Positions 12,734 through 28,600 are shown, numbered from the stretch's first letter. The stretch: 53,372 nucleotides of DNA from a virus (IMGVR_UViG_3300010160_000059:1-53372), one strand, 5' to 3'. Notes: a model not told the origin generated them from the sequence alone. Numbers and translations: made by a program.

Positions 12734-12763
12734 AATTAATCCCAGAAAGATCGATAGTATTAT

Positions 12764-13234
12764 TTAGTTAAATCGAATAAGTTTATTAAAACTTCTCATA
12801 ACAGTTTTCATATATTCTTCTTTCTTTTCTTTGGAAATTCTAGATTTAACCGTCATGATATCCATACGATCTAATGATTTTGATGCTAAGTTTTTCTCTA
12901 CTAGTTTATTATGTAGTTCCTCATCAAACAATGCATAACCGTATTTTGTATCGGTTTCAAGCAGATCATCATTTACAAATTTGCCCAATGCTAGTCTATT
13001 GGCTAGCACAGCCGCAGTTTGTGGAAGATTTATATTATCTATAATTATATCTTTTTCAAAATCTAATATACAATAAAATCCGTTTTTTTTGCGTTTAATG
13101 TAATAACGTCCTACACTAATAGTGCCATCGTTATTTTTTACAGGAATTATTACTCCTTGTTGAAGCAATTTTTCTTTTGAATTTTTACTTAGTTCTTCTA
13201 TTTTTGAATAGAGGTCATTTGGTCGTAGTTTCAT
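12764..13234 (-). CDS. Hypothetical protein (156 aa)
   Basis: ORF in the late gene block. Confidence 0.75.
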   Translation of the reverse strand: MKLRPNDLYSKIEELSKNSKEKLLQQGVIIPVKNNDGTISVGRYYIKRKKNGFYCILDFEKDIIIDNINLPQTAAVLANRLALGKFVNDDLLETDTKYGYALFDEELHNKLVEKNLASKSLDRMDIMTVKSRISKEKKEEYMKTVMRSFNKLIRFN

Positions 13235-13427
13235 CTAGTTGTTTTATTAAAGTTGTACTATCATTACTTATTGCGTAGAGTCCCTTGCGAACAAGGTTTT
13301 GAGCAAGCCATTGATCGTGCTCATCTAAACTAGTAATAGATATATTATCTTTATGTCTACGGAGGAAAGATTGTTCTTCATTGGTGAGAACAATATGCAT
13401 CCCTGATAACAACTGACCTATTTTCAT
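13215..13427 (-). CDS. Small hypothetical protein (70 aa; LTNEE...AQNLVRKG, winged-helix-like)
   Basis: ATGA overlap with the upstream gene. Confidence 0.7.
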   Translation of the reverse strand: MKIGQLLSGMHIVLTNEEQSFLRRHKDNISITSLDEHDQWLAQNLVRKGLYAISNDSTTLIKQLDETTTK

Positions 13428-13738
13428 ACTGTCGGTGGTTGCTGCATCTGCTGCTGCATCTGTTGTTGTTTTTGTTTTAGACCCACAATCTGTGCAGCAA
13501 TCTTATCAAGGTCTGTCATTGTATCTTTCATACCTTGTTGCATTGCGGGAGGTTGTCCTATTGGTTGTCCTGCTGGCTGTTGATTGCCTAATGTTGGAGC
13601 AGGTTGCCCTGCTTTTGGAGGTTGTCCGGGGGGAGGTGTTTGTCCGGGGGGAGTTGATTTTGGTAATCCATCTGGACTAACCGGATCGGTTGTAGATCCT
13701 ATAGGCGCTACGGCTTCGACTAATTCTGATATACGCAT
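13424..13738 (-). CDS. Pro/Gln-rich putative internal head protein
   Basis: MRISELVEA N-terminus followed by low-complexity P/Q sequence. Confidence 0.7.
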   Translation of the reverse strand: MRISELVEAVAPIGSTTDPVSPDGLPKSTPPGQTPPPGQPPKAGQPAPTLGNQQPAGQPIGQPPAMQQGMKDTMTDLDKIAAQIVGLKQKQQQMQQQMQQPPTV

Positions 13739-13739
13739 A

Positions 13740-14060
13740 TTATTTTAACAAACTAATTAATGTTTCGCTATGTGCTGTAACCCAACCTAATGCTGCTATA
13801 GCACCTGCACTAATATATACCCATTTTGTTTTAAATTGTTCAAGGTCTTTAATCTTTCCCGCCATATCACTATGTTGATCAATATTTGCTGTATGCATTA
13901 CAGCAAGTTGATCCATGATACTGTCACGAGTACGATCTAGGCAATCATGCATATCTTTGACATCTGTTTTGAGATTGTCAATCTTTTCTTCAATGTTATC
14001 TACTTTTGTTTCTAGTACGCTAACACGTTCTGGAACGGTTGCCAGTGCTGCTCGAGCCAT
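13740..14060 (-). CDS. Coiled-coil protein with C-terminal transmembrane helix (XhlA/holin-like)
   Basis: ERVSVLETKVDNIEEKID heptads, then hydrophobic WVYISAGAIAALGWV; AGGAGA SD. Confidence 0.7.
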   Translation of the reverse strand: MARAALATVPERVSVLETKVDNIEEKIDNLKTDVKDMHDCLDRTRDSIMDQLAVMHTANIDQHSDMAGKIKDLEQFKTKWVYISAGAIAALGWVTAHSETLISLLK

Positions 14061-14103
14061 TTAAGTCATCTCCTTTAAGGTGTACGAATTTCCGACTAGT
14101 TGC

Positions 14104-14529
14104 CTAAATTGTGCCTTTGATTGCCTTAATGACTGTATTCTTGGAAGACGCATCTATTAGTTCGAAAATGGCCTTCTCGATATTTATCGTTTCAGTTAAC
14201 TTTTTAATAATTGGAACACCCTGCATATCTTCGTACAAACATCCTAGTTCATGTAGACCATCTGAGTACACATCGGATCTGTCTGGATTAAATCTAAATG
14301 TCCATACGGCATGTTTGCCTTTGAACTTAGTTCCAAACCCTAAATCTTTAATATCAATAACTTGCATCTCCGGAGCAAAGTCATAAGATATAATTGATCT
14401 AATTTCAATACATTGTTTTAATGTAACAAAATTTCTATACTGGTCATGTTCTAATGTGGTACCTTGATTAGGTCTTGCAACCTTTGTATCAGTGATATCT
14501 ATTAAAGTTTTAATTTCTATTGTTTGCAT
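14104..14529 (-). CDS. Conserved hypothetical late protein (TLIDIT motif)
   Basis: Likely start MQTIE at 14529, after TAAATA and the terminator. Confidence 0.75.
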   Translation of the reverse strand: MQTIEIKTLIDITDTKVARPNQGTTLEHDQYRNFVTLKQCIEIRSIISYDFAPEMQVIDIKDLGFGTKFKGKHAVWTFRFNPDRSDVYSDGLHELGCLYEDMQGVPIIKKLTETINIEKAIFELIDASSKNTVIKAIKGTI

Positions 14530-14556
14530 AATATACCTATATAATATATTTATGTC

Positions 14557-14586
14557 AAAGAAAAAGGGAGTTAAAAAACTCCCTTT
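14557..14586 (-). terminator. Intrinsic terminator
   Basis: 10-bp stem AAAGGGAGTT/AACTCCCTTT with T-rich tail on the minus strand. Confidence 0.8.
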
Positions 14587-14605
14587 CATTTTCTAATAGT
14601 TTAGA

Positions 14606-15034
14606 TTAGAATGTTGTGCCGTTAACACCAAGTGCTGTAGTTACAGTACCAAGGTCAAAACCTTGCCATGTACCTTGAGCGCGGATTAAACGCTTAACGT
14701 AATCAATGAATGACTCGCTGTTTGTACCATCCCACTTGATTGTTCCAGCAAATGCGCCGCCTGGTGCTGAAAGAGCAATTGCAAGAATTGTGTTACCAGA
14801 ACTACCTAAATTGTATTGTGGTGTACCAATTAGTTCAATTGTTGCTACTTGAGTAACTGCTTCCAATGCTACTGCGATTGGGCTGCGTGATGCATTTGGG
14901 TAAGTTGTTGTATCGGTATCTAACATTGCTGTCAAGTCGCTGCTTGGGAAAGTAATAGTAAGAAACTGTAAAGTTACGCCGTTCTTGTAAAACGGTGCTA
15001 CTACCGTTTCATTCTTTTTTGTTAATGTTGCCAT
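14606..15034 (-). CDS. Probable abundant virion structural protein (142 aa)
   Basis: Own late promoter (15090-15095), strong SD CAGGAGA, own terminator and highly biased codons. Confidence 0.7.
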   Translation of the reverse strand: MATLTKKNETVVAPFYKNGVTLQFLTITFPSSDLTAMLDTDTTTYPNASRSPIAVALEAVTQVATIELIGTPQYNLGSSGNTILAIALSAPGGAFAGTIKWDGTNSESFIDYVKRLIRAQGTWQGFDLGTVTTALGVNGTTF

Positions 15035-15128
15035 TTTAAATATCTCCTGATCTTGTTTTTAAGTTTCCCCATGAAACTTAGTATGTTTTTATTTATCTCG
15101 ATTGAAAGAAATTAATCCAAATGCCCTA

Positions 15129-15428
15129 TTAATCGTCGTTTTTGACATCACCTTCTATGATTTTAAGGTGTCTAGCAGTTTCTTTGTTATCACGTAGTTT
15201 GCGTATACCACGAGTAAACTTGTTAGGATCAGATGCTTTGATGCTATTAAGCAGTCTACGTTCTAACTCATAAGCATCCTCTGGGGAGAAATTTTCTTTG
15301 ATAAGTGCTAGTAGATTGATAGCACTGTCAATGACATGTGTAGCCCTTGCTTCTATAATGGCTTCACTATTCTTCTTTTCCGATATGGAATTGAGTTCTT
15401 CTAACAGACTACGGGTTGCTCGTTTCAA
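15129..15428 (-). CDS. Conserved hypothetical phage protein (TTG start)
   Basis: AAGGA SD; TAAATA and a TGnTATAAT upstream; helical 99 aa. Confidence 0.75.
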   Translation of the reverse strand: MKRATRSLLEELNSISEKKNSEAIIEARATHVIDSAINLLALIKENFSPEDAYELERRLLNSIKASDPNKFTRGIRKLRDNKETARHLKIIEGDVKNDD

Positions 15429-15489
15429 GATAGTATCCTTGTTGTGGTATTTAGTAGATTATAGCATATAACTTTGGAGAAATAAAGAC

Positions 15490-15527
15490 TTGTAAATTGT
15501 GCGGTCGCAGCATACAATGTATAAATA
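15490..15527 (+). promoter_or_regulatory. sigma70 promoter with palindromic operator in the spacer, followed by a late promoter
   Basis: TTGTAA (15490-95), 17 bp, TACAAT (15513-18); the spacer contains TGCG-GT-CGCA (15500-09); TATAAATA at 15520-27. Confidence 0.65.
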
Positions 15528-15590
15528 CTTTACTCAGTAGAAACCATGAGAGACTACTGAGAATATGTTATATACAAAGGAAAATAAAAT

Positions 15591-15764
15591 ATGTTAAACA
15601 CAATCACTGAATACTTCCAAAAGATGTTTCAGAATTTCAGTAAGCCACAAACTTACAGTTCCGCATTAGAAGAATACATTGTTAGACACGCACCCACAGA
15701 TTCTTGTGATGTAGATCGTCTAACCCGTCAATTTGAAATAAATCAATCACGTAGGGGATGGTAA
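15591..15764 (+). CDS. Small protein (57 aa), DUF3563-like
   Basis: Missed by the ORF track; AAAGGAAA SD; LEEYIVRHAPTDSCDVDRLTRQFE resembles the E.YL..s.D..DlErr.R pattern of DUF3563 (from recall). Confidence 0.7.
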   Translation: MLNTITEYFQKMFQNFSKPQTYSSALEEYIVRHAPTDSCDVDRLTRQFEINQSRRGW

Positions 15765-15766
15765 TC

Positions 15767-15901
15767 ATGTATATGCTAAAAGCAATCTATAATTTTTTAG
15801 GCGAGATGGGTAAGGCCCATGCTGCTTCAAATTTAGCACGTAGCGGAGATTATAAGGGCGCAAAACGTCTTATGATGGAAGATTTTAAAGGCTGGATTTA
15901 A
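15767..15901 (+). CDS. Small amphipathic protein (44 aa, MYMLKAIYNFLGEMGKAHAASNLARSGDYKGAKRLMM...)
   Basis: Missed by the ORF track; SD AGGGGA; starts 2 nt after the upstream stop. Confidence 0.7.
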   Translation: MYMLKAIYNFLGEMGKAHAASNLARSGDYKGAKRLMMEDFKGWI

Positions 15902-15975
15902 TTGCTCATTAAATTTGCAATATAAATAATAATGCAGTACAATTACTGCTACACATTAACACACAGGAGATAAAA

Positions 15976-16257
15976 ATGTTTAATAAAATGTTCGCACCAT
16001 ACCTAACGCTTGAAGCACACATCGAAGCGTTCCAAGAAACTAAACGAGGCCTAACAGACAAGATCATCACTGATCCTACGCTGAATAAGGCTGCACACGA
16101 TTATATCGATGCTCAGACTGAATTTGCTAAAATGCTAGCACACAACTTTACTGACATCGCAAAATATTCCATGGATGCCATTTCTGATAAATGGTTTCCT
16201 AAGAATGAAGAAGTAGTTGAGGCTAAGACTACACGTAGCAAGACGGCTACCGCCTAA
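15976..16257 (+). CDS. Helical amphipathic protein, phasin-like (tentative)
   Basis: Strong SD CAGGAGA; all-alpha amphipathic pattern, about 90 aa, basic tail. The phasin call is inference. Confidence 0.6.
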   Translation: MFNKMFAPYLTLEAHIEAFQETKRGLTDKIITDPTLNKAAHDYIDAQTEFAKMLAHNFTDIAKYSMDAISDKWFPKNEEVVEAKTTRSKTATA

Positions 16258-16282
16258 GACATACACACACAAGGAGAAAATT

Positions 16283-16549
16283 ATGTCAACATTGAAAGCA
16301 CCTGAAGTAAAATTCAACAAGAACGGTTATGAAATCCGTACAGATATTTTAGACATGGCCAAAGGACTAGTCAGTGAGGAATATCACTCTAAGTTCCGCG
16401 GCTGGGAAATGTCAGTTGCCAAGGACGAAAAGACTGGCCAAGTGGTTACCCGGATAGACATGCCAGAATTTCCAGGACTTGACAAAGTATTAGAAACAGC
16501 AGAAAAGATGTATTCATTTGTTAATGCTGGTAGTGTTTCAAAGAAATAA
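16283..16549 (+). CDS. Conserved T4-like phage protein (NKNGYEIRTDILDMAK...AEKMYSFV)
   Basis: True start likely ATG 16283, after AAGGAGA. Confidence 0.8.
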   Translation: MSTLKAPEVKFNKNGYEIRTDILDMAKGLVSEEYHSKFRGWEMSVAKDEKTGQVVTRIDMPEFPGLDKVLETAEKMYSFVNAGSVSKK

Positions 16550-16580
16550 TATAAAAAAAATATATAGGACGTAGTCCAGA

Positions 16581-16611
16581 AGCCCCGGCATTAGATCGGG
16601 GCTTTTTTTTT
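16581..16611 (+). terminator. Intrinsic terminator closing the plus-strand island
   Basis: AGCCCCG...CGGGGCT stem followed by a T9 tract, at a convergent junction. Confidence 0.88.
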
Positions 16612-17341
16612 ACCAAGACATTTGTTTATGATATTTCCATTTAACTATTTTCCAACCAAAGAAGTCAGATAGTCCACCTGTACCGTCAATTTTAAGAGTG
16701 CTCATTAAATTAACATAATATTCTCTATGTGATATTTTACAAAGATATAATTTATTATGTCCCATAGCAAATGGAACTAGTGATGGGTTCATACTGTTAT
16801 ATTTTACCCAACCCTCAAGCACGCCGGTCCACCAGTGATTCATTATATCATCTAATATAACTACACCTTCATTACTTATAACGCTATTAGCAAGTACTAG
16901 ATCATTCATTACATGGATAGGAGTATGTCCGCCATCAATTGAAAAGAATTTAATTGATCCCGGTTGAATAATTTTAGTTAATTGTAAACTAGAGTCTGTA
17001 CTATCACCCTGTATAATAAGAGTATTACGGCCATTATGTCTATCAAGATTTTCTAAATTTTTTCTAAAAGCATCTAGTTGACCTGCACCTGATTTATCTA
17101 CATTAAGATGTTGATTGTTGAATATATCAATAGCATACGATTTAAAATTTTCATCTACTGTTTGATTTAACAATAAAAATAATTTGCCATCTTGTATACC
17201 AATTTCAGCAATGCCGCCCCTTTGGTTTACTGGTTGTGTAGAAAGTATGTCAAGTGTGTTAAAAATATCATCATAACACCATCCGTGGACTGTTTCAAAA
17301 TGAGGGTAATATTGTTCTAGATAGGGATTATTAAAGGCCAT
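16610..17341 (-). CDS. Class I SAM-dependent methyltransferase (Methyltransf_24-like)
   Basis: AEIGIQDGK, YAIDIF, IQGDS, FSIDGGH and GVVILDD motifs. Confidence 0.88.
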   Translation of the reverse strand: MAFNNPYLEQYYPHFETVHGWCYDDIFNTLDILSTQPVNQRGGIAEIGIQDGKLFLLLNQTVDENFKSYAIDIFNNQHLNVDKSGAGQLDAFRKNLENLDRHNGRNTLIIQGDSTDSSLQLTKIIQPGSIKFFSIDGGHTPIHVMNDLVLANSVISNEGVVILDDIMNHWWTGVLEGWVKYNSMNPSLVPFAMGHNKLYLCKISHREYYVNLMSTLKIDGTGGLSDFFGWKIVKWKYHKQMSW

Positions 17342-17344
17342 TTT

Positions 17345-17749
17345 TTAAATTGGGTTACTTCGAAGAAATTCAGGATGCTGTTTATTGAAGTGACGCATAA
17401 TAACGCCAGCAATTTCGTGCGCTTGATTTTCTTCCGGGGATCCTGTTTCACCACTTTTATCATTTAATTCATTACTAATATCTTGTTTAAAGTGTACTAG
17501 TTCGTGAGCAACAGTTCTGAGTATATCTACAGGATGACGGTTAAGTATTGCAACATGTAAAGTTTTCTCATCATTAACATACATACCAAAACTAGGCTGT
17601 CCGCCCGAATCTATTTCAGATTCAAAGTTCATTTTAGGTAATCTGTTAATTTCTAAGATTTTCATAGCCAAGGGAAGAAACTTCTTGAACATATCAACGA
17701 ATGTTGCCTTGGATTCTCTACCTTCAACTAATAACTCAACAATTTGCAT
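17345..17749 (-). CDS. Zincin-type metallopeptidase, probable internal virion protein
   Basis: TVAHELVH (HExxH) plus distal ENQAH glutamate; MQIVELLVE N-terminus; late promoter. Confidence 0.8.
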   Translation of the reverse strand: MQIVELLVEGRESKATFVDMFKKFLPLAMKILEINRLPKMNFESEIDSGGQPSFGMYVNDEKTLHVAILNRHPVDILRTVAHELVHFKQDISNELNDKSGETGSPEENQAHEIAGVIMRHFNKQHPEFLRSNPI

Positions 17750-17855
17750 ACTGTATTTAGTGCCGGTAACTTTATCCGGCGCACACTACGCGGTGCAGTT
17801 CAATTGCGCGGACGCCTATAACCGTGACGACTAACGTGCCCTAAGGTGGGTTCTT
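17750..17855 (-). ncRNA. Candidate structured cis-regulatory RNA (SAM-V/SAM-II-like pseudoknot, tentative)
   Basis: GC-rich island in AT-rich DNA; stems GCCGG/CCGGC, GCAC/GTGC, GCGCA/TGCGC, GGCG/CGCC and ACTG/CAGT, the last abutting the ATG. Confidence 0.4.
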
Positions 17856-18487
17856 AAATATTCTTCTGTTTTATCAGTATATATACCTGTGACCTGTAAA
17901 GTTGCCCTAGGTACATGCCCTGCATTGGCAGTAGAATGCGGTACATTCATCCAATCAAAAGTAGTTACAGAGCCTGCTTCCCAGCGTGACCACATATAAT
18001 TACCATAACTCCAAAAATGTCCCATTTGCCAATCTGTTAATTGTATAAAATATCGTACTACTCGGTTAGGATCTGCTGGCATCCATTTTTCTAATTTATC
18101 TAAGTGCAGATTCCAAACTTGTCCCGGATGCTGAACATGTATGCGTGCCATGCATGAATCAAGACCAAATTGATCTGCAATGTTTTGAAACACAGGTGCT
18201 AGTTCGTAATTTAAATTTGTTACTATATAATCTTTACTCATACCATACGATTCTAAATCGTATTCTTCACGATCGTGTTCTTCACTGCTACGAACCTTTG
18301 TATCGTTGGGTTTGCCCCTTGTACGCCATGTTACAGGTTTACTAGATTCTATTGCAGCCGCAAGTTCTACTTCCCAGTTCGGTTCTATATGTCCTAAACG
18401 TTCTACTCTATCCCATTTTGGATTCCAACGTTCTGTATTAAAGTGGTACTGGCTACGCTGTTTAGTGAGTTCCCAATTTGAGTTCAT
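17831..18487 (-). CDS. 2OG-Fe(II) oxygenase-like (AspH-type) protein
   Basis: PGQVWNLHLD (HxD), VPHSTANAG (distal H) and PRATLQVTG (R) motifs. Confidence 0.8.
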   Translation of the reverse strand: MNSNWELTKQRSQYHFNTERWNPKWDRVERLGHIEPNWEVELAAAIESSKPVTWRTRGKPNDTKVRSSEEHDREEYDLESYGMSKDYIVTNLNYELAPVFQNIADQFGLDSCMARIHVQHPGQVWNLHLDKLEKWMPADPNRVVRYFIQLTDWQMGHFWSYGNYMWSRWEAGSVTTFDWMNVPHSTANAGHVPRATLQVTGIYTDKTEEYLRTHLRAR

Positions 18488-19104
18488 ATTACTTTTACCC
18501 TTACATCACTTACTACATATTCTTGTGTGTATTCTAAAGGTGGAGGTTCAATACCTAGTAACGATGCTAATTCACAATTGGTGTTGGGTACTTTACCATT
18601 ATGATGCCAATATGCATCTAGTATATCCTGGTTTTGTTCGCTGATGATGTTAGACATTGTACGTAAATCTTTATAGTACTTATCGTATTTAGGATAGGTA
18701 ATGTTGAAATGCCCACACTTAACCCACCAACCTAAACAAGCATCATTACCGCGATGTACTAATATAATAGGACAGTCAGGCCAATGTTCTTTTAAGAAAT
18801 TAATGTTATGTGCAAAGATATGGCTTTTAATAATACGTATGCCGTGTCCTGTAAATGGCCTATCAAATTCTTCTTCACATTGTTCTTTAGTATGAACATC
18901 TAAGTTATCAAAAAAATCCCCAAACTCCATACCAGGGTCAAAGTATGCACCTAAGTGCATTAACTCCATCTTGCCACTAGCATCATGGTGATATGTGCGT
19001 TCATCACTATAATCAGTTTGATCTAAACTAGGGCTATAATAGATGTTTTTAACTACACTACTCCATTTACTGCCTGGAGCACCGGCTACAAATATATATT
19101 TCAT
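18484..19104 (-). CDS. Sulfotransferase/kinase-like P-loop protein
   Basis: IFVAGAPGSKWSSV, IIKSH and IILVHR align with the sulfotransferase-fold pattern; the PAPS-binding residues are atypical. Confidence 0.6.
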   Translation of the reverse strand: MKYIFVAGAPGSKWSSVVKNIYYSPSLDQTDYSDERTYHHDASGKMELMHLGAYFDPGMEFGDFFDNLDVHTKEQCEEEFDRPFTGHGIRIIKSHIFAHNINFLKEHWPDCPIILVHRGNDACLGWWVKCGHFNITYPKYDKYYKDLRTMSNIISEQNQDILDAYWHHNGKVPNTNCELASLLGIEPPPLEYTQEYVVSDVRVKVI

Positions 19105-19676
19105 AATTTATTAATTAAATCTAGTATGTATTTTCTAGTGTGACGATTGACTTCACGTTCTGGATGCCAACCTACACATAACATTCTAGTTAATTTATTT
19201 AACGTCAATTCTACCACCCCAGAAGAATCTTGTTGTAATATTTCAAAGCCGGGCGCTACTTTATCTATCATGATACTATGATGACAAGTAACTTCAAAAT
19301 TAGATAATTTTACTTTTACACCGTCGTATGGATTCTCCATGCGTACATGTGTACCGCCTGATATGTAATTTATAAAGTGTGAACCTCTACATATACCAAC
19401 TACAGGTAAACTTCTATCCCAGCAGGACTCAATCAATTTCTTTTCATATTCATCACGCAATGGGTAATGATTGTCGCGCCATGTTTTAATTCCAAGCATA
19501 TCATTACCACCTGTTAATATAACTAAGTCTAAGTTATCAACATAGCATTCAGTGTCATAGCAACTTAATGGTATGATTCTATGTCCTTTTAGAAAATCAT
19601 ACCATTCGTGATTAAGTGCCGCATGCCACGTATCACGCAGCTTGCGGGTCATTTCCATACTTATACCGATGTTCAT
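19101..19676 (-). CDS. Class I glutamine amidotransferase / peptidase C26 (gamma-glutamyl hydrolase-like)
   Basis: ILTGGND, VGICRG (catalytic Cys) and VGWHPE (His-Glu). Confidence 0.9.
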   Translation of the reverse strand: MNIGISMEMTRKLRDTWHAALNHEWYDFLKGHRIIPLSCYDTECYVDNLDLVILTGGNDMLGIKTWRDNHYPLRDEYEKKLIESCWDRSLPVVGICRGSHFINYISGGTHVRMENPYDGVKVKLSNFEVTCHHSIMIDKVAPGFEILQQDSSGVVELTLNKLTRMLCVGWHPEREVNRHTRKYILDLINKL

Positions 19677-20635
19677 TCTGGTTTAATCTTTGCTGCAAAT
19701 GGTTGCCATTGTTGACGTAATTTACGCATACTATCACGTATACCTTCTGCATTATGCTCACTTGGTGTTATGAATATATAGTTTTTGTCAAACTGTTCTT
19801 TTACCTCATTGCTACGGATAGCAGGAACAAAGTTTTCTTTGTACCACTGTTGTACATCAAGTGGAGTACCTTTTGGTAACATCAAGTTCCAGCAAGCATA
19901 GACATTTAGACCGGGTATGTAGTCTTTCATTAATGGAACTGTTTCTAAACCAGTTATCTTAGATTCACTAGCTAGTCCAATAAGTTTAATTTTACCTGCT
20001 TGTACCATTGGTGCTCCAACTGCAATAGGGAACACACCAAACTCTACGTGTCCACCTAACACATCTTGCATTGCTTGTGCAGGGCCTTTATACAGTATAG
20101 TCTCAACTGTATCTTTTGTAGGTTTTACACCTGCTACAAAGTATTCAACTGCTAACTTATGTGCAGCACCACCTACAGCAAATGTAATTGGACGTTTACC
20201 TGCACGTACCTCTGCAATGAGTGTTTGCGGAGTATCAACTGTAGCAGAATTTCTAGCATAAAATGCTAATGGGCTTTTACCTATGTTAGCAACACCTTCC
20301 CACGCCATTGCATCAAACTTTACTGTATCTGGATACCAAATTTCTGCTGTTACAAATGTTGATTGACAGCTTGGCATAGCAACGTGATAACCATCTGCGG
20401 GTAGTGTGTTGAAATGGGTCATGCCTATGTTGCCGTCTGCTCCGGGTTTATAATCGGGTGCCCATTTAAATGATGGGTTCTTTTCTTCTACAATTTTTGC
20501 TACTATGCGAAAACTGATTTCATTCCCAGCGCCTGGACCATTTGGAAATATAACTGTTATAGGTTTAGTAGGTTGCCATGCAAAAGCTAAAATTGGGAAT
20601 AGTAATAATAATATTAAAAGTTTTTTCATTGTCAT
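19673..20635 (-). CDS. Bug/TctC family tripartite tricarboxylate transporter substrate-binding protein
   Basis: Signal peptide; PTKPITVIFPNGPGAG, KPGADGNIG, PADGY, YKGPAQAMQDVLGGHV, GKIKLIG and PKGTP motifs. Confidence 0.92.
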   Translation of the reverse strand: MTMKKLLILLLLFPILAFAWQPTKPITVIFPNGPGAGNEISFRIVAKIVEEKNPSFKWAPDYKPGADGNIGMTHFNTLPADGYHVAMPSCQSTFVTAEIWYPDTVKFDAMAWEGVANIGKSPLAFYARNSATVDTPQTLIAEVRAGKRPITFAVGGAAHKLAVEYFVAGVKPTKDTVETILYKGPAQAMQDVLGGHVEFGVFPIAVGAPMVQAGKIKLIGLASESKITGLETVPLMKDYIPGLNVYACWNLMLPKGTPLDVQQWYKENFVPAIRSNEVKEQFDKNYIFITPSEHNAEGIRDSMRKLRQQWQPFAAKIKPE

Positions 20636-20642
20636 CTCCTTA

Positions 20643-20672
20643 TATAAATATTAACAACTAGTATTATTTATT
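20643..20672. promoter_or_regulatory. Face-to-face late promoters for the Bug operon and the methyltransferase
   Basis: TATAAATA on + (20643-50) and AATAAATA on - (20672-65), 14 bp apart. Confidence 0.55.
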
Positions 20673-20713
20673 CCATAATACAGAAAAAAATATTAAATTA
20701 TCAAAAAAATCTT

Positions 20714-21442
20714 ATGAACACAAAAATTTTTAACCTAATCAAAGAAAATTTAGAACTTGCGTTTAATTTACCCAAGTATAATAAAATTTCTATCACTGAG
20801 GATACAATTGTAGAACAGTTACCCTGGACACCCGCACGATACTCAAAGTTTAAGGATGCTGTAGAAGCTGAATTAAGTCTACCATGCGAATACACAGGAA
20901 CATTACGCAATATAGTAGCAGATTTATCTGAACGTTATATTTTACGTTTCTTTAGTGAGATATGGAAACCACGCACAGGTGACTATGAACATACCGGATG
21001 GGAACTTGCTGATGAAATCAACAAGTTAAACCCAGAAAAAGTATTAGATGTTGGGTGCGGATATCATCCATTCAAAGGTCGTATACATAATATTATTGGA
21101 ATAGACCCATACAACAACTGTGCTGACTATGAAGTAGATATACTAGATTATAAAGTCAAGCCTGCAAGTTATGATGTTATCATAGCGTTGGGTAGTATTA
21201 ACTTCAACAGCAAAGATGAAATTGAAAGACGATTCAGCCATTGTGTAGATTTACTTAAGACTGGTGGAAAGTTTTATCTACGTGCAAATCCAGGGATAAC
21301 TCATAAGACTGGACCTTATGTAGAAATATTTCCCTGGACGTTTGAAGTTATAAATGAGTTTGCTGAAAAGTACAATTTAAAATTAGAAACGTTTAAGCGT
21401 GATGCTAATGATAGATTATACTTTGTATATACTAAACTTTAA
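20714..21442 (+). CDS. SAM-dependent methyltransferase with N-terminal acyl-carrier-like domain
   Basis: VLDVGCG, IGIDPY, YDVIIALGS and LKTGGKFY motifs; the first ~75 aa follow an ACP-like helix pattern. Confidence 0.82.
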   Translation: MNTKIFNLIKENLELAFNLPKYNKISITEDTIVEQLPWTPARYSKFKDAVEAELSLPCEYTGTLRNIVADLSERYILRFFSEIWKPRTGDYEHTGWELADEINKLNPEKVLDVGCGYHPFKGRIHNIIGIDPYNNCADYEVDILDYKVKPASYDVIIALGSINFNSKDEIERRFSHCVDLLKTGGKFYLRANPGITHKTGPYVEIFPWTFEVINEFAEKYNLKLETFKRDANDRLYFVYTKL

Positions 21443-22254
21443 TCTGCATTCTTTCCGCATTTAGTACGTTTAGCATTTGTAAGTGCTCCGAAATCTACAG
21501 GCCATTCTTGTCCTGGATTGAGTTCTTTGTATCCCGGTGGAAGTGCATATATCACACCTGCTTCGGTTTGAATCTGTGAAACTGGAATACGAAACGCTTT
21601 GAGATCATTACCTAAATTGGGATAAGGTGCAACATGGGGGAAACGCCAGCCTGCAACTTCTTTGGTTGTGTTATTAATAACAATTTTATAATATCCATGA
21701 GGAACAATTACACCATTTCCTATTCTTTTATCGCCAGCACCGTAAAATGCACCAACAAAGATTGTAAATGGTTGGTTTAATTGAACTGTCCAACCACGAA
21801 CACTAGTTTCTAATAGTTTCCAGATTCCTCTATTTAATGATCCTGCTTGTGGATACATATTAGTCATTAAGAAACTTTCGTACTCTACAATTTGACTCCA
21901 ACTTAGATCGCCGTCTGGAGCAGCATGTCCTTTGTCATAGCCTGTGCCAGCATAGTCATCTGGACGAGCACCGCCCTGTATGCTTTGATCTACAACAAAA
22001 GCATTTGTGCGCGGCCAGCATCCTATAGCATTTTGTGGTAGCAATGTATATGCTACATATATTGGAATCTTGACAGGAGCATCATATGCTACTAAGTATG
22101 CTTCACGGCAGATAGGCTGTGCTGCTCGTTGGGTAGTGGCAAATCCGTATGGGCTATGTACTTGACATGCGACCGGTTGTAATGGAGCACGTTGGTCCCA
22201 GGCTTGTGCCAATCCTGCTACGAATAGCAGAGCAATTATTAATAGTTTTTTCAT
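21439..22254 (-). CDS. Secreted DNA/RNA non-specific endonuclease (NucA/EndoG family)
   Basis: Signal peptide (AQA|W); GYDKGH, ESFLMTNMYPQ, LNRGIWKLLE and VPHGYYKIV motifs. Confidence 0.93.
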   Translation of the reverse strand: MKKLLIIALLFVAGLAQAWDQRAPLQPVACQVHSPYGFATTQRAAQPICREAYLVAYDAPVKIPIYVAYTLLPQNAIGCWPRTNAFVVDQSIQGGARPDDYAGTGYDKGHAAPDGDLSWSQIVEYESFLMTNMYPQAGSLNRGIWKLLETSVRGWTVQLNQPFTIFVGAFYGAGDKRIGNGVIVPHGYYKIVINNTTKEVAGWRFPHVAPYPNLGNDLKAFRIPVSQIQTEAGVIYALPPGYKELNPGQEWPVDFGALTNAKRTKCGKNAD

Positions 22255-22283: not shown

Positions 22284-25200
22284 TTATCTACGTACAAAAT
22301 GATAGTCACCATCAGGACCGTTATTACTAAACAATCCCAAGCAGTCATATCCTATTGAATCCATATAAGCAATTACAGTATCCTTTAGTGGTGCGCCCTT
22401 ATTATATTCTACTATCTGTAATTCTAATATAATATGCTTGGCTGTTTTAATAGTTTCCTGAGCACCTTTAAGCACATCTAATTCTGCACCTTGTACATCC
22501 ATTTTAATTAGATCAGGTGTAGGAAATTGTTTAAGATTTACTATAGCATCTAACGTAATAGTTCTAAGTTTTCTTAAATATTTTTCTGCATATAAATGTG
22601 CTGCTGCTGGTTGTATTTCTGCATTTTCTCTGTAATAACTATTGCCGCCAGGGGCTTCATCGTTTTGATAGAAATCTACTTCCCTACCGCTTTCATTACT
22701 TAACACACCTATGTGGTATTTTATACCTGCTTCTTGATATAAGAATTCATGTACATCTGCTGCTTCAAATGCAATTACTTCTGCTTCAGGCCAAATCTTT
22801 CTAACTCGATCTGTCCAATGTAGCACACATGCACCAATGTCATATATAACTTTTGGTTCTAATCCTTCATTTTTTAATTTGTTTAGATATTCTATATGAG
22901 GAGGTGGAAACGGATATGGATCACGTAGGTCTCTTAAAAATTGTTTAATATCAACTACTTCTGATGTTGTGTTTATTACCGGTATAGTAGTATCTACATT
23001 AAATGTAAAACTTCCTGTATGTCTACATAATATAGTAGGATCTGCCCAAATTGTAAATCCATTGTCTCTTGCTTTTCTACAGAAATCAACATCTTCAGAT
23101 ACTGTATCATTCATACTTAATGCACTATAATATTTAAACTGGGGATATCCTATTTTACGCATAACTTCTGCTTTAACAAGAGCACATCCAAATCCACATC
23201 CTGCAACTTCCACTAATGGTCTTCCTTTTAATTTTCCATAAGGCATATTAGCAACACCACCAGTTGGGGTATGTTCATATATTTCTAAAATGTGCTGCCC
23301 GGGTTTACGCTGTATGTATAATCCACTTACAACATCTTTATCATATGCTAACATTTTAGATAATGTATCTGGTGCAAATGCAATATCACTATCTACTGAA
23401 AATAGATAATCGTAGCCTTTAACAACCCAGTCTGCAATTAGATTACGTACTTGATCTATATTATATCCGTAAAAATATTGAAATGTTGTTTCATATCCAT
23501 CGGGTACTATTAAATCATATATACTTTTATATGTATCTGGTTCAATATTTTTAGCCGTTGGGATTGCTATAAGTATTGTTTTTTTTTGTTGATTCATTTT
23601 ATTAACTATCTCTCTTGCATTTTTATTTTGCTCATCTCCGTTAACTTTATAATCATTTAATGGACTAGCATCGTTATAATTATATACAATATCTGTTATA
23701 CATTTTACCTTGTTAGGATCAGCGGCTTCTATTAATGCATAAAATACGCTGCCATCACCACCTGCCTTATACCAATTACCATTTGAATCTTTAAATTGAT
23801 CGTCGTTAATTGTATTGAGCAAACTCTTTTTAAATGTTCTTAAATGTGTATAGGGTAATATCCAATTGAAGTGATGATTCCTGTATGATTTATTTTGTTT
23901 TACTGATTCAGGATATGGTTGACTAATTAAAGGAATATCATCAACCATGCTCCAACATGATCCATATGTGAATTCTGTGGTGCCATCATATATAGAATTG
24001 TAATAGGATAACACAGTATTGTCACTAATTAAACTATCATCTCCATCAAGCAGTATTACTATGCTATCATCACTTATCAGAGTTCTAATATTTTGTATTT
24101 GATTCCTAACTGCACCTAAATTTTCACTGTTAGATATAACAGTGACTTTGTTTCTAACATCCTCAGGCAACACTTTTAATGTTTCTAATATAACCTTAAT
24201 AGAATCATCAGTGCTTGCATCGTCAATTAAAATGTGTTGATAATTATCATAATCTTGCGATGCTACACTTATTATACAACAAGATATATAATTAGCACAA
24301 TTATAGAAAGGACTAATTATCGCTATACTTTGTTCATTGCCTGATTTATAATTTTCTAGTTCAATTGTATTAGTAAATCTTCTATTCCAAACTTTATGTA
24401 CTCTACGATTAATTTTTGATACAGCACGGTATTCATCTCTAGGCAAATATTTTCCTAGTTTATATACCATAAATTGTTTCCACTGTAACGCTACACTATC
24501 CCATCCTGCAATATCTTTTACAATATTACAATAATATTGTTTTTGTTGATGTAGATATTTGTTATGATATGCTTGTATGGTTAAATTTACAAACTTGTCA
24601 ATTTGATCAGGTGAGTTTATGTCTGGAAATAATCCATTAGGCTCAACAGCATAATCCATTAGATAACATGCACCTTCTAAAGCAATCTCTTCTAATGCAC
24701 CAAATCTACAGGTAATTATAGGAGTATTATATAGTAGACTTTCTAGTGATGATATTCCAAATGTCTCTGGAAAGATTGCAGGATATATCATATAACTAGC
24801 AGATGTTAATATATCTGCAATTTCTTTTTGCGATATAACTCCTGTATATTCTATGTTTAGTTCTTGATTTCTTGGGTCAGCGGACATTACTCGCCAATCT
24901 TTTTCTTGTTGGTCGGGTTCTGAACTTTCACTAAATCTGTAATAGCCGCCTATAACTTTTAATCTTGCACTGGGTATATGTGCTTTAACACGTGGCCATA
25001 TCTGTTTAATTAGCGGAACCATACCTTTGGTTACACTAGCATTGTAAACAAACAGGTTAGGATCTTTGGCTTTTATATCAATTTCTGTTTTGTAATTTCG
25101 AGCACCATTACGTGTGATAAACATTTTGCGTTTTAGTACTTCAAAATTACGTCGACGTCCGTGATTGCAATTTGCTACGTATGTTAAATGAAAATCACTA

Positions 25201-25655
25201 AGAGTAAAGATGTCAGTGATACGATTTGCTGTTGCAAGTTCTTCTATAAGATTATCTCCGAGACAAAATGTATCATGCATCCATAATATACGCATTTTGG
25301 CTCGACTAACAATTCTATCATATAAATTCATACTTTGGAAAGGCATAGCCCGTCCGTCACCTAATTTATGATAGTCTTCGGGTTTAGTAAAAGGAATCAC
25401 TGTTCTAGAACTTATAACAATATCAAATTCATGATCTAGTGCTAGATCATTAAGTGGACGATATTCTACTCCGTTATAGTTACCTGCCTGAGCATGATCA
25501 ATTCCGCAGTTGTTAAAAACAGTAACTGAGAACCCAATATTATTAAGTTCTCTGGACATAAGGGTAACTGCACTTTCGCTGCCACCTAGTCCTTGATTAT
25601 CTACGGTATTACCATCGTACGGTATACCAATTATGTCTATAATAGCAAGTTTCAT
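22284..25655 (-). CDS. Multidomain glycosyltransferase: GT-B (GT4-like) + GT2 + GT-A + FkbM methyltransferase
   Basis: LGGSE and FPETFGISSLE (GT4); IISPFYN/IDDASTD/LDGDD (GT2); VDSDI/GCGFG/SEDVDFC (GT-A); YDIGA/IKMDVQGAE (FkbM). Confidence 0.9.
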   Translation of the reverse strand: MKLAIIDIIGIPYDGNTVDNQGLGGSESAVTLMSRELNNIGFSVTVFNNCGIDHAQAGNYNGVEYRPLNDLALDHEFDIVISSRTVIPFTKPEDYHKLGDGRAMPFQSMNLYDRIVSRAKMRILWMHDTFCLGDNLIEELATANRITDIFTLSDFHLTYVANCNHGRRRNFEVLKRKMFITRNGARNYKTEIDIKAKDPNLFVYNASVTKGMVPLIKQIWPRVKAHIPSARLKVIGGYYRFSESSEPDQQEKDWRVMSADPRNQELNIEYTGVISQKEIADILTSASYMIYPAIFPETFGISSLESLLYNTPIITCRFGALEEIALEGACYLMDYAVEPNGLFPDINSPDQIDKFVNLTIQAYHNKYLHQQKQYYCNIVKDIAGWDSVALQWKQFMVYKLGKYLPRDEYRAVSKINRRVHKVWNRRFTNTIELENYKSGNEQSIAIISPFYNCANYISCCIISVASQDYDNYQHILIDDASTDDSIKVILETLKVLPEDVRNKVTVISNSENLGAVRNQIQNIRTLISDDSIVILLDGDDSLISDNTVLSYYNSIYDGTTEFTYGSCWSMVDDIPLISQPYPESVKQNKSYRNHHFNWILPYTHLRTFKKSLLNTINDDQFKDSNGNWYKAGGDGSVFYALIEAADPNKVKCITDIVYNYNDASPLNDYKVNGDEQNKNAREIVNKMNQQKKTILIAIPTAKNIEPDTYKSIYDLIVPDGYETTFQYFYGYNIDQVRNLIADWVVKGYDYLFSVDSDIAFAPDTLSKMLAYDKDVVSGLYIQRKPGQHILEIYEHTPTGGVANMPYGKLKGRPLVEVAGCGFGCALVKAEVMRKIGYPQFKYYSALSMNDTVSEDVDFCRKARDNGFTIWADPTILCRHTGSFTFNVDTTIPVINTTSEVVDIKQFLRDLRDPYPFPPPHIEYLNKLKNEGLEPKVIYDIGACVLHWTDRVRKIWPEAEVIAFEAADVHEFLYQEAGIKYHIGVLSNESGREVDFYQNDEAPGGNSYYRENAEIQPAAAHLYAEKYLRKLRTITLDAIVNLKQFPTPDLIKMDVQGAELDVLKGAQETIKTAKHIILELQIVEYNKGAPLKDTVIAYMDSIGYDCLGLFSNNGPDGDYHFVRR

Positions 25656-25693: not shown

Positions 25694-28600
25694 TTATTTG
25701 AGTTGTAGTTTTTGTATAGGTGGAATAAATGCAGAAGTATAACGTGCTATACCATTAGTAATCCTTAACTCATCAATGTATCCATTGAATAGCAAATTAT
25801 TATATGATTTTCCAATATACTTAAATGGTGCTGTTAAATTTGTGCTATTTGTTGCAGTAGAAATAACTGTACCATTATTGTACATATATATTATTCCGTC
25901 ATTTCTAACCACTGCTATGTGTTGCCATGTATTAAGTATTACTGTAGCAGTTACAATGTTTGTTACATTTTCTCTCCATGCTATTTGAGGGCCGGCTGGT
26001 AATGTTGTTCCACTAAATCCAAAACGTATTAATCCTGCTCCATCACCAGTTGTTCTTGCATCTAATAATGCAGGTGCATTACCACTACTATATGATGTTA
26101 ATGGATACATCCACATCTCTACAGTAAAATTCCCAGACCCTAAAGCAACTGCCGAACTTGTACTTATTATTAATCCAGTTCCTGTTGTTCCGTCAAAATA
26201 CATACTCATGTTATTGTATTTTTTAACAGAAGATGCTAACCCTGCATCTCCTGCGGTGTAGATATCATTCATTGATGAAGCATCAACAATTACAGCATCA
26301 GTAAAATTAAGTAATAAATTAGTAGCAGTTAAACTAGCAACTACAGGAGCAACTGGTAATGTGTACGAAGGCACACTATCCGTAAATATACCAGAACTAA
26401 GGAATGTATGTACTGTATATCCGCTTATGTTAGTTGTTATAAGGTCACCACCGGTTGCTCGTTGTGGACCAAAATATCGTATAATAACACATCCTGATCC
26501 CCCAGCCCCGACATTCGCGCCACCACCACCTGTATTTGTTCCACCATTTTGAGCACCACCAACATTCCTCCCGTTAGCACCACCACCAGCGCCGCCTGCA
26601 CCCCCACCTTGACCGCCATAATAATATTGGTTTGGATAAGCGCCTGCGCCGCCGCCCGAATAATAATATCCAAATCCATCAATATTTGACATCGCGCCAG
26701 CACCGCCATTACGATCAGTTGCTGCTGCACCGCCTCCACCGCCACCACCACCACCCTGTGATCCGCCTGGTCCATCAAAACCGTCGTATCCTTGAGGAGG
26801 AACTGTGGATGGAACGTTACCTGATTGTGCCGGATAAGTGGCACCATAACCACCGCCACCTGAACCACCACTAGTACCTCTTACGTTATTAGATGCACCA
26901 CCACCACCACCGGCAGATTCAATAAGTATTCCACCACCTGCTATTGAAGATATAGAACCTTGGAATCCTGGTACTGATCCGCTACTACTACCTGCGCCTC
27001 CTGGTCCCACTGTAACTACATAGTTGATTCCTAGTTGAGAAGTAACGAATGTACCGGTTCTAAAACCGCCGCCGCCGCCACCACCTTTGCCACTACCGGC
27101 ACCTGCGCCACCCCCACCAGCAACCACTAAGTATTCTACGGTTGTTCCTGAACTAATGTTAGATGTAACAACACCATCAGATATAACACCTTTTAATATT
27201 CTTAGGTTAGACATATAACCTGTGTAAGAATTAATTGTAGATACAGCATATCTTCCAATTGTTAATGGATAACTAGCAGATGTAGCAGTAAATGATGATG
27301 TAGTAGTGGCAGTAGTTGTTGTCCTATATCCATTTATATACAAATTTGTAGTTTTGTTGCTACTAGCAAATGTACATGCTATATGATTCCATGCGTTAGG
27401 TTTAATGGTGTTTTTGCCACTTTGCACAATTGTATAATTAGTACCATTTACCGCAACCCAGTCAAATGATCCGCCGTTTACTTGTAATTGCATTCCGGGG
27501 ACAGAAGAATTGCTAATATCAGATGTTCCAATCAATCCAATATTTGAAGCAGTAGTTATAGGATATATCCATCCTTCTATAGTGTAGTCGGTGGTTCCAT
27601 CATGTAGATATGTCCAATTGGGAGTGTTATTGGTGCTTGTAGTACCAATTGTTAAGTAGTCTGTAGTTCCATTAAAATATGCACTACCACCAACTAATGT
27701 AGTATTATATGAACCAAAATTAGAAAATGGTGAAAACTTTTTAACTGCAGGATTTCCGTTGCTCACTATTGTCCAATTATAATTGCTTACATCATCCCAT
27801 ATACTATTAGAACATGTTAGTAATAATGTATTTGTTACTAGTGGTAATGGACTAATCGCAGGAGTAAATGGTGCTGTATAAAAAGCAGTCCCGTTTAATA
27901 TGCGTATGTTTGATATATATCCATTGAAATATGAAGCATCTACATAACCTATTCTTAAATCAGTAGTATAAGCATATAAACTCGATGCATTTGTAGTTGA
28001 TCCTCCTGCAACACCATTTAGGTATGTTGTAAACGTTGATCCGCTACGTACTAATGCAACATGATACCATTGTCCTACTGCTACCGTACCCACGGTAATA
28101 GTACCTATATTAAAACTACTTCCATTTGAACTAAGATAGCATGACAAAGTACCAAGAGCACTCAGTTGAAATTTCCATGCAAATCCAGAATGCCCTATTA
28201 ATTGCTGTCCACTTGCTACACTATTAAAATATACCCAACCTTCAATGGTAAAATTATTGCTGCCTAAACCTAATCCTGTAGTTCCATATGATGTACTATT
28301 TGGTATTGATAGATAACTACTCCCGTCAAAATATACACTCCAATTTTTAGCATACGGATTAAATGATCCTTGTGAGGGAGTACCATTGTGTAATATTGGA
28401 TATGAATTTGTACTATTATCTATAAATTTAGTATTACTTAATGAATTTCCAAATACTAGTGCTCCTGTACTGGTAAACACATAAACTCTATAACCACTAG
28501 TAGTAACCATTATAGGAGAACCGATAATACTAGGCATAGGATTAGCAGATGGTTCCCAAACTATTCCAACGCCGGAACCTCCAGCGCCGCCGGTACTGCT

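Follow-up and report, generated by a model that had tools for sequence, protein, structure and literature searches.

A Bug/TctC receptor gene joined to a conserved set of putative tailoring enzymes in freshwater jumbo phages: a possible import-and-process cassette

What use does a bacteriophage have for a periplasmic receptor of the Bug/TctC type that is encoded in one operon with enzymes? The question is raised by IMGVR_UViG_3300010160_000059, a complete IMG/VR virus record of 53,372 bases (the window, below). The Bug gene lies there with genes for a C26 glutamine amidotransferase (GATase), a P-loop-like protein, and a putative oxygenase, and diverges from a methyltransferase (MT) gene. To our knowledge, receptors of this class always work with a TctA-type permease. 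As the initial annotation of the locus had stated, there is no TctA gene in the window (TctB was not searched for). We found that the module is real, conserved, and abundant in uncultured freshwater jumbo phages. We regard it as a putative phage uptake auxiliary metabolic gene (AMG) of a new transporter class, joined to a tailoring operon made up partly of virus-only enzyme families. We read it tentatively as an import-and-process cassette of a freshwater jumbo phage, and judge the case for that reading to stand a little short of even. The features of the locus are as follows.

17831-18487, minus strand: oxygenase gene (oxy), 218 amino acids (aa)
18484-19104, minus strand: P-loop gene, 206 aa
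19101-19676, minus strand: GATase gene, 191 aa
19673-20635, minus strand: Bug gene, 320 aa
20714-21442, plus strand: methyltransferase gene (MT), 242 aa
20636-20713, 78 nucleotides (nt): divergent control region with an ATAAATA promoter-like motif on each strand
20644-20650, plus strand: ATAAATA motif, pointing towards MT
20665-20671, minus strand: ATAAATA motif, pointing towards the Bug operon

All three junctions between the minus-strand genes are ATGA, and the four genes form a translationally coupled operon with MT divergent from it, just as first annotated at these coordinates. The identification of the receptor also held up. Bug matches the Pfam TctC family (PF03401; 4.1e-21; 76.1 bits against a cut-off of 27; profile positions 20-242 of 274) and is related to 11 solved Bug/TctC chains (best 2.2e-18). 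Its N-terminal signal peptide, read from the sequence, is MTMKKLLILLLLFPILAFA before WQP, with a hydrophobic stretch that ends in AFA; the hydrophobic N terminus and the A-W-x-P that follows are kept in relatives. Invariant in 18 Bug sequences are A19, W20, and P22 after the signal peptide and two Gly-rich loops, P31-E39 and G155-H159. Bug is thus predicted to be secreted to the periplasm, and the enzymes to stay in the cytoplasm. The closest bacterial relatives among those found share only 26-29% identity with it, and the phage protein belongs to an extensive virus-borne clade (909 clusters, with contigs that reach 349 kb).

Conservation was assessed from three independent anchors: Bug (25 viral loci, 58-95% identical, several of them cut by contig ends), the oxygenase (the best 80 of 350 stretches, which gave 70 distinct loci), and TctA (32 viral loci in 26 distinct contexts). 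Around the 25 Bug anchors we found the P-loop gene in 22 loci, MT in 20, the oxygenase in 18, and a C26 GATase in 16; 10 of these GATases are close relatives and 6 are only 26-30% identical. The P-loop gene lies directly upstream of the oxygenase gene in 66 of the 66 oxygenase-anchored loci with 1 kb of flank. Where the upstream flank was at least 4.5 kb (n = 49), MT and the P-loop gene were each present in all 49 loci, Bug in 39, and a second binding protein (Bug2) in 9, so that either one or the other binding protein was present in 48/49. The same 49 loci contained TctA in 9 cases, with the divergent binding protein, and a GATase in 7. Among the 26 TctA-anchored contexts, Bug2 adjoined TctA in 25, and the oxygenase was found in 20, the P-loop gene in 18, MT in 18, a GATase directly upstream in 11, and an APS-kinase-like fusion (described below) in 6, in several gene orders.

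These counts from three anchors divide the module into a core, which consists of MT, a tripartite tricarboxylate transporter (TTT) receptor, the P-loop protein, and the oxygenase, and an accessory part, the GATase. The initial annotation had proposed a five-gene unit, a proposal to be dropped if its genes rarely occurred together in other phages. Rare co-occurrence is clearly contradicted, since synteny is conserved from all three anchors; of the unit itself, MT, the binding protein, the P-loop protein, and the oxygenase are conserved together, with the GATase as an optional member (7/49).

The gene set is kept while its alleles and order change. Relative L033 is 96% identical to the window across positions 12390-18481, 70% identical in the P-loop gene, lacks the GATase gene, and is 80% identical beyond. 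In L003, MT is 97% and Bug 95% identical to the window, the oxygenase only 56%. Over 53 loci, the identities of Bug and of the oxygenase to the window were uncorrelated (r = -0.17). Allele swaps and recombination breakpoints thus fall at gene boundaries and leave the set intact. Rearranged orders that keep the set are P-loop, Bug2, TctA, oxygenase (L043) and GATase, TctA, Bug2, oxygenase (L164-L167). The slot between MT and the P-loop gene is variable: it may hold Bug; Bug and GATase; TctA and Bug2; TctA, an outer-membrane protein, Bug2, and a second sulfotransferase-like protein; or a diiron-like protein, a cupin, and the second sulfotransferase-like protein, without a TTT part. One locus with no TTT gene (L094, 2461-8693) encodes an outer-membrane barrel, a 242-aa helical protein, a divergent GATase, a cupin-like protein, and a second sulfotransferase-like protein. 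The helical protein resembles one in L062 that has weak matches to diiron families, and the N terminus of the second sulfotransferase-like protein matches the Sulfotransfer_3 loop (E = 2.3e-4).

Transport parts other than Bug occur in the relatives. Loci that seemingly have no Bug encode a TctA permease of 479-483 aa (Pfam E = 4.1e-91 and 3.6e-85) and a secreted protein of 351-353 aa, Bug2, which has no Pfam match. The first 85 residues of Bug2 align with the Bug profile (hhalign probability 97%, E = 2.3e-11, 83 columns), and among solved structures it is closest to Bug proteins (BugE, E = 2.7e-4); by these matches the TctA neighbour is a divergent Bug. One group of relatives has an outer-membrane beta-barrel inside the module, between TctA and Bug2, and one relative that is at least 92% complete (a 349-kb genome) has a Porin_4 porin beside two extra Bug paralogues. 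Because TctA, an outer-membrane barrel, and a porin are encoded within or close to the module in relatives, we favor uptake over signalling or binding of the module's own product. The suggestion in the initial annotation that Bug binds what the enzymes make, or serves as a signal receptor, therefore leans the wrong way. No TctA was found in 3/3 relatives with a completeness of at least 92% (the search did not include TctB); the same three have 2-3 TctC genes each, and four large genomes carry 1-3 TctC genes each. The phage lineage invests in envelope-level acquisition.

Extra Bug paralogues were seen elsewhere in large genomes (L123, 7613-13530; L124, 5935-7991; L126, 5944-8003). Each is followed by a protein of 380-423 aa that has no Pfam match and starts with ...YY.VG...Y..K..A. 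In L019 a 415-aa protein precedes Bug. A further paralogue (L125, 7486-11678) adjoins an AMP-binding (adenylating) enzyme, a hexapeptide acyltransferase, and a radical SAM protein, which makes another set of a receptor plus enzymes in this phage lineage.

Of the enzymes, the GATase has the firmest assignment. It matches Pfam Peptidase_C26 (1.4e-20; 74.4 bits against a cut-off of 20.5), and its triad Cys96-His171-Glu173 is invariant in 12 sequences from two subfamilies. Its identity as an amidohydrolase of the peptidase C26/class I glutamine amidotransferase type, as originally called, is solid. The best NCBIfam match is to gamma-glutamyl-CDP-amidate hydrolase (NF045546), over the whole length (72.2 bits against an equivalog cut-off of 250; E = 5.8e-20), a model that gives sub-cut-off matches in 14/14 control genomes as well. 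No GATase of the NF045546-matching kind was found in four large relatives.

The 218-aa protein is virus specific and is probably a 2-oxoglutarate (2OG)/Fe(II) oxygenase with a cupin fold, similar to Asp/Asn beta-hydroxylases. Alone it has no match in Pfam (Asp_Arg_Hydrox included), PHROGs, or NCBIfam and nothing significant in PDB; a wide profile gave AtsK only (E = 0.7). However, H128, D130, H184, and R194 are unchanged in 39 diverse family members with 23-53% identity, which suggests the His-x-Asp...His plus Arg pattern of 2OG/Fe(II) oxygenases. Like the GATase triad, then, these candidate catalytic residues are intact rather than degenerate. Asp_Arg_Hydrox (PF05118) gives weak matches, below the curated cut-off, in 4/39 members (best 2.6e-4). 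When the family was aligned by hhalign with 13 bacterial Asp_Arg_Hydrox domains (E = 2.2e-4, probability 45%; cross-control against sulfotransferase domains, E = 0.1), its His/Asp/His/Arg residues paired with that family's own. The oxygenase call is therefore plausible on its residue pattern, but stays below the curated profile cut-off. A word search gave 1323 relatives of the family, and a full hidden Markov model scan gave 1040 representative clusters; 350 stretches were confirmed on viral contigs. The family was found in 0/301 bacterial genomes searched (Burkholderiales, the order of the nearest bacterial Bug).

The 206-aa P-loop-like protein is also virus specific and is probably a group transferase of the sulfotransferase fold, of the type that uses 3'-phosphoadenosine 5'-phosphosulfate (PAPS). 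By itself it has no match above cut-off in Pfam, PHROGs, or NCBIfam and nothing significant in sequence and profile searches of PDB. Sulfotransfer_3 (PF13469) scores 16 bits on the window protein against a cut-off of 27 and matches below cut-off in 15/21 family members (best E = 5.8e-4). In hhalign, the family aligned with 13 bacterial Sulfotransfer_3 domains over 45 columns (E = 7.8e-4, probability 25%; cross-control E = 0.62). The alignment pairs K93 and R118 with the DK.P and R.P.D..S stretches of Sulfotransfer_3 and leaves the N-terminal loop unaligned. G8, P10-S12, W14-S15, and K93-S94-H95 are invariant in the family, R118 is present in at least 90% of sequences, and the canonical Walker A Lys-Ser/Thr is lacking. 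The protein collection holds 4109 relatives, of which none is named. The sulfotransferase-like call is thus plausible, with weak but consistent profile matches, none of them above a curated cut-off. Because neither virus-specific protein has a Pfam or PHROGs match of its own, both names rest on weak profile evidence; by-feature leads from a protein-language-model atlas point the two families in the same two directions as the profiles.

Motif and weak profile matches suggest that MT is a class I S-adenosylmethionine-dependent methyltransferase. Four Pfam methyltransferase models match below cut-off (best 21.8 bits against 27), the DxGCG motif is invariant (D112, G114, C115, G116), and the closest solved chain is phosphoethanolamine N-methyltransferase (E = 7.8e-5). 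The N-terminal domain of about 85 aa is conserved, without an assigned fold. Its description as like an acyl carrier protein found no support, because these 85 residues have no carrier-protein family match at E up to 0.01 and no conserved Ser motif, and the conserved stretch LPWTPARY(R/S)KFKD contains no Asp-Ser-Leu-type motif.

A further enzyme is encoded next to the module in many relatives. A 265-aa fusion protein is the gene product after the oxygenase in 17/49 loci with enough downstream flank and occurs in 26/102 loci examined (for example, L045, 8639-9436, directly after the oxygenase gene). The N-terminal domain resembles adenosine 5'-phosphosulfate (APS) kinase (Pfam, 42.4 bits against 21.1), and 8/9 of the solved relatives are APS kinases or PAPS synthases. 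The C-terminal domain is an HxGH nucleotidyltransferase whose nearest relatives are nicotinamide mononucleotide adenylyltransferases. The fusion is present in 3/3 relatives that are at least 92% complete and was not found in the window fragment. A kinase for a 3'-phosphorylated nucleotide donor beside a sulfotransferase-like protein fits sulfation, and hydroxylation by the oxygenase could create the sulfation acceptor.

If the module imports and processes a metabolite, the secreted Bug would capture an organic anion in the periplasm of the host. A carboxylate is the most likely ligand, for instance a compound of the amino-acid-like or gamma-glutamyl kind. Bug would hand the anion to a TTT membrane permease, which for the window phage would be the host TctA(B) and for some sister phages the phage-encoded TctA, paired with a divergent binding protein of its own. 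Because only Bug has a signal peptide, its link to the enzymes requires a membrane step. Once imported, the compound may have an amide cleaved or transferred by the C26 amidohydrolase, be hydroxylated by the 2OG/Fe(II) oxygenase, receive a sulfuryl-type group from a PAPS-like donor through the sulfotransferase-fold enzyme, and be methylated by the divergent MT. What we infer, rather than observe, is how the two virus-specific enzymes fold, in what order the reactions run, that Bug docks on host TctA, which ligand it binds, and how the phage benefits. A bolder version is a pathway run by the phage, in which a scarce or host-inaccessible anion would enter by a phage-specified TTT route (porin or outer-membrane barrel, Bug, and sometimes TctA). 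Two new virus-only enzyme families, an oxygenase and a PAPS-type transferase supplied by the APS-kinase fusion, would then turn it into a product that is hydroxylated, methylated, and either sulfated or phosphoramidated. The phage would need this product, for instance, as a cofactor of the virion, as a metabolite against host defences, or as a signal. We consider this version as a whole unlikely.

The face-to-face TAAATA promoters first reported in the control region are present as promoter-like ATAAATA motifs on each strand of the 78-nt spacer, and their arrangement means that MT and Bug transcripts would overlap at their 5' ends. The motif resembles NATAAATA, the late promoter of T4-like phages. 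There are 19 copies of ATAAATA in the window. Non-coding sequence makes up only 6.6% of the window, yet it holds 14 of these copies, and each of the 14 lies 5-100 nt upstream of a same-strand start, tail-fibre-like genes among them. Of 60 distinct spacers from related loci, 52 keep the operon-directed TAAATA, whose distance to the MT start is mostly 19-22 nt (background, 0.056 per 100 nt). The exact 8-mer TATAAATA is not enriched in the window (6 observed versus 11.9 expected). The signal lies in the position of the 7-mer and not in its count. Sigma-70-like promoters and terminators were not more frequent than chance. After the oxygenase gene there is an unusually GC-rich 80-nt spacer (17750-17830; the genome is 36% GC), which ends in CTAAATA ahead of the next gene. 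Its predicted folding is not better than that of shuffled sequences (z = 0.40), and no terminators were called in it.

The contig does belong to a phage, as first supposed. Its completeness is 15% (CheckV). Because relatives of its genes sit on viral contigs of 303-349 kb that are 86-97% complete, the window is a fragment, about 15%, of a freshwater jumbo phage of roughly 320-350 kb. It encodes a class Ia ribonucleotide reductase (RNR) and tail-fibre-like proteins, and the related locus L019 contains the T4-type genes for gp32, PhoH, and a Gp38-like adhesin. Among GenBank phages there was no DNA match to the window; the closest RNR large subunit is that of a Xanthomonas phage (60% identity), oxygenase relatives were absent, and the matches were two for the P-loop protein, both distant, and one for Bug (24% identical). 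At least half of the sampled words of the window are present in two public runs, each labelled freshwater metagenome; one of them may be the source of the record, and the other gave pieces of 230-424 nt with zero differences from the window. Three runs labelled RNA-Seq or metatranscriptomic were flagged "probably DNA" and contain contigs of relatives only; among the public runs listed, no RNA data set contains the window.

The neighbors of the module in the window are varied. A secreted DNA/RNA non-specific endonuclease (21439-22254, minus strand; Endonuclease_NS, 6.8e-35; NUC1-type; with signal peptide) shares 4 nt at its 3' end with the 3' end of MT, and its gene adjoins the module in several relatives too. 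Beyond it lies a 1123-aa protein of four domains (22284-25655, minus strand): two glycosyltransferase domains (GT1 and GT2), a region that matches phrog_1574, and an FkbM-type methyltransferase. We take this layout to recall the multi-domain glycosyltransferases of giant viruses. After the operon come a 134-aa HExxH protein (17345-17749, minus strand; phrog_87 metallo-protease, 3e-5), longer relatives of which (189-195 aa) follow the module in many loci, and a Methyltransf_24 protein (16610-17341, minus strand). The structural region has two very long open reading frames, 25694-30877 (1727 aa) and 42310-48159 (1949 aa), both on the minus strand.

Several observations weigh against import and processing. 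Docking on a host permease is unproven, because TctA is missing from the three relatives of at least 92% completeness and the closest bacterial Bug sequences found reach only 26-29% identity. The phages are related, so the co-occurrence counts are not independent events. L019, a Bug locus, holds none of the enzymes, and L094, an enzyme locus, holds no TTT part, so either half of the module can exist alone. A member of the P-loop family is also present in a marine cyanophage-like virus, where it adjoins a carbamoyltransferase and there is no Bug. ATAAATA also precedes tail-fibre-like genes; if it is a late promoter, the timing would be odd for nutrient uptake. Finally, sequence support for the folds of both virus-specific enzymes is weak (hhalign probabilities of 25% and 45%). 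The glycosyltransferases and carbamoyltransferase near the module, here and in L017, fit glycan tailoring equally well. The locus would then be a glycan or envelope tailoring island whose sulfotransferase-like protein, oxygenase, and methyltransferases decorate a polysaccharide, lipopolysaccharide, or virion glycoprotein, with the TTT parts as a precursor supply or as neighbors in a hypervariable region. The module is indeed flanked by the 1123-aa protein and the Methyltransf_24 protein; L017 encodes a GT1 and a NodU-type carbamoyltransferase as well as additional paralogues of the P-loop protein and MT; the marine relative has its carbamoyltransferase; and the promoter motif is shared with tail-fibre-like genes. 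Asp_Arg_Hydrox, the named family closest to the oxygenase, has members whose substrates are proteins or lipid A. Yet the association with TTT genes is far tighter (48/49 loci) and survives the shuffling of gene order, whereas a glycosyltransferase is near the module in only 2/77 oxygenase-anchored loci listed, beyond the close kin of the window. We therefore regard glycan tailoring as rather unlikely.

It is quite improbable that the MT/P-loop slot is simply a recombination hot spot for unrelated morons, with the TTT genes functionally untied to the enzymes. Although the slot content is variable and the breakpoints are at gene boundaries, TTT genes remain among the same enzymes after rearrangement (L043, and the order GATase, TctA, Bug2, oxygenase), and the window genes are translationally coupled. 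An orphan Bug might instead report a periplasmic ligand, possibly the product of the enzymes, to a host sensor kinase. Bordetella is known to have orphan Bug proteins with a signalling role, and near-complete relatives have 2-3 Bug genes and no TctA. However, an exporter, kinase, or regulator was seen in the module in none of the loci examined, and sister phages swap Bug for TctA plus Bug2, which is a transport solution; signalling is thus very improbable. Even less to be expected is a phosphoramidate pathway like that for the O-methyl phosphoramidate (MeOPN) of the Campylobacter jejuni capsule. The GATase would be a gamma-glutamyl-CDP-amidate hydrolase, as in its best NCBIfam match (E = 5.8e-20, whole length), and a kinase/cytidylyltransferase fusion would make the 3'-phospho-CDP-amidate donor, from which the P-loop protein would transfer the group before MT methylates it. 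C. jejuni Cj1415-Cj1418 make CDP-phosphoramidate 3'-phosphate, and the donor is built by an APS-kinase homologue, a cytidylyltransferase, and a GATase-type hydrolase (PMC11800397). The relatives' APS-kinase homologue, fused to a cytidylyl/adenylyltransferase-like domain, mirrors Cj1415 and Cj1416. But the GATase score is 72 bits versus 250, all 14 control genomes give sub-cut-off matches, the four large relatives have no such GATase, the glutamine-kinase-type PPDK_N domain is in 0/5 phage records, and the GATase and kinase fusion occur together in only 1/32 loci with both flanks. The least probable explanation is a DNA hypermodification cluster, in which the oxygenase would oxidize a base, the P-loop protein phosphorylate it, and amidotransferase and methyltransferase steps follow. 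The thymidine hypermodification clusters of other large phages have a similar logic, and a large glycosyltransferase is nearby; but 0/39 oxygenase members match a Tet/JBP model at E up to 0.1, the P-loop protein has no canonical Walker A Lys-Ser/Thr, and a secreted binding protein or permease would have no role there.

Import and processing thus remains our preferred, if tentative, reading, and it would set the module apart. The usual phage AMG encodes a single enzyme of host origin or, where uptake is concerned, the PstS phosphate receptor. In the module described here, an organic-acid uptake system of the TTT class is tied physically to two large virus-only enzyme families (4109 and 1323 relatives). 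If the link is functional, phages specify both the entry and the chemistry of a metabolite, two unnamed protein families gain a testable function, and the Bug family gains a new biological setting.

Among known systems, the bacterial BugD, BugE, Bug27, TctC, and terephthalate-binding TBP resemble the phage receptor in their TctC match above cut-off, length, signal peptide, and Gly-rich loops. The phage Bug differs in its low identity to them (26-29%), in its virus-borne clade, and in having no adjoining TctA (TctB was not searched for). The cylindrospermopsin and saxitoxin clusters of cyanobacteria contain hydroxylase, sulfotransferase, and APS-kinase sets in which hydroxylation creates the sulfation acceptor, the combination of enzyme types found here. 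These toxin clusters build their own scaffold with enzymes of the polyketide synthase/nonribosomal peptide synthetase type, whereas the phage module has no scaffold enzyme and has a transporter instead; the likeness is one of enzyme types. The C. jejuni O-methyl phosphoramidate pathway (Cj1415-Cj1418 and Cj1421/22) shares a GATase-type hydrolase, an APS-kinase homologue, a nucleotidyltransferase, and candidate methyltransferases with the phages, which lack the defining glutamine kinase, have a hydrolase far below the equivalog cut-off, and seldom have the parts together. Neither a phage TctC nor this module is described in the passages of the literature that the search returned; viral TTT genes appear there only as the SUP05 tctA and in a review table (the SUP05 supplementary table was not covered). 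In those passages a tctA "AMG" is reported on viral contigs of SUP05 bacteria, its role left open (PMC4164917; review, PMC6359870). [quoted passage not shown] A precedent for such uptake is the cyanophage PstS, which works with the host PstCA and is thought to boost uptake (bioRxiv 10.1101/2021.07.20.453049). Like the window's Bug, it is an orphan periplasmic solute-binding protein, encoded by a T4-like aquatic phage that itself has none of the membrane subunits. That system belongs to the ATP-binding cassette class and this one to the TTT class, and here the receptor gene is operon coupled to enzymes and some sister phages bring their own permease.

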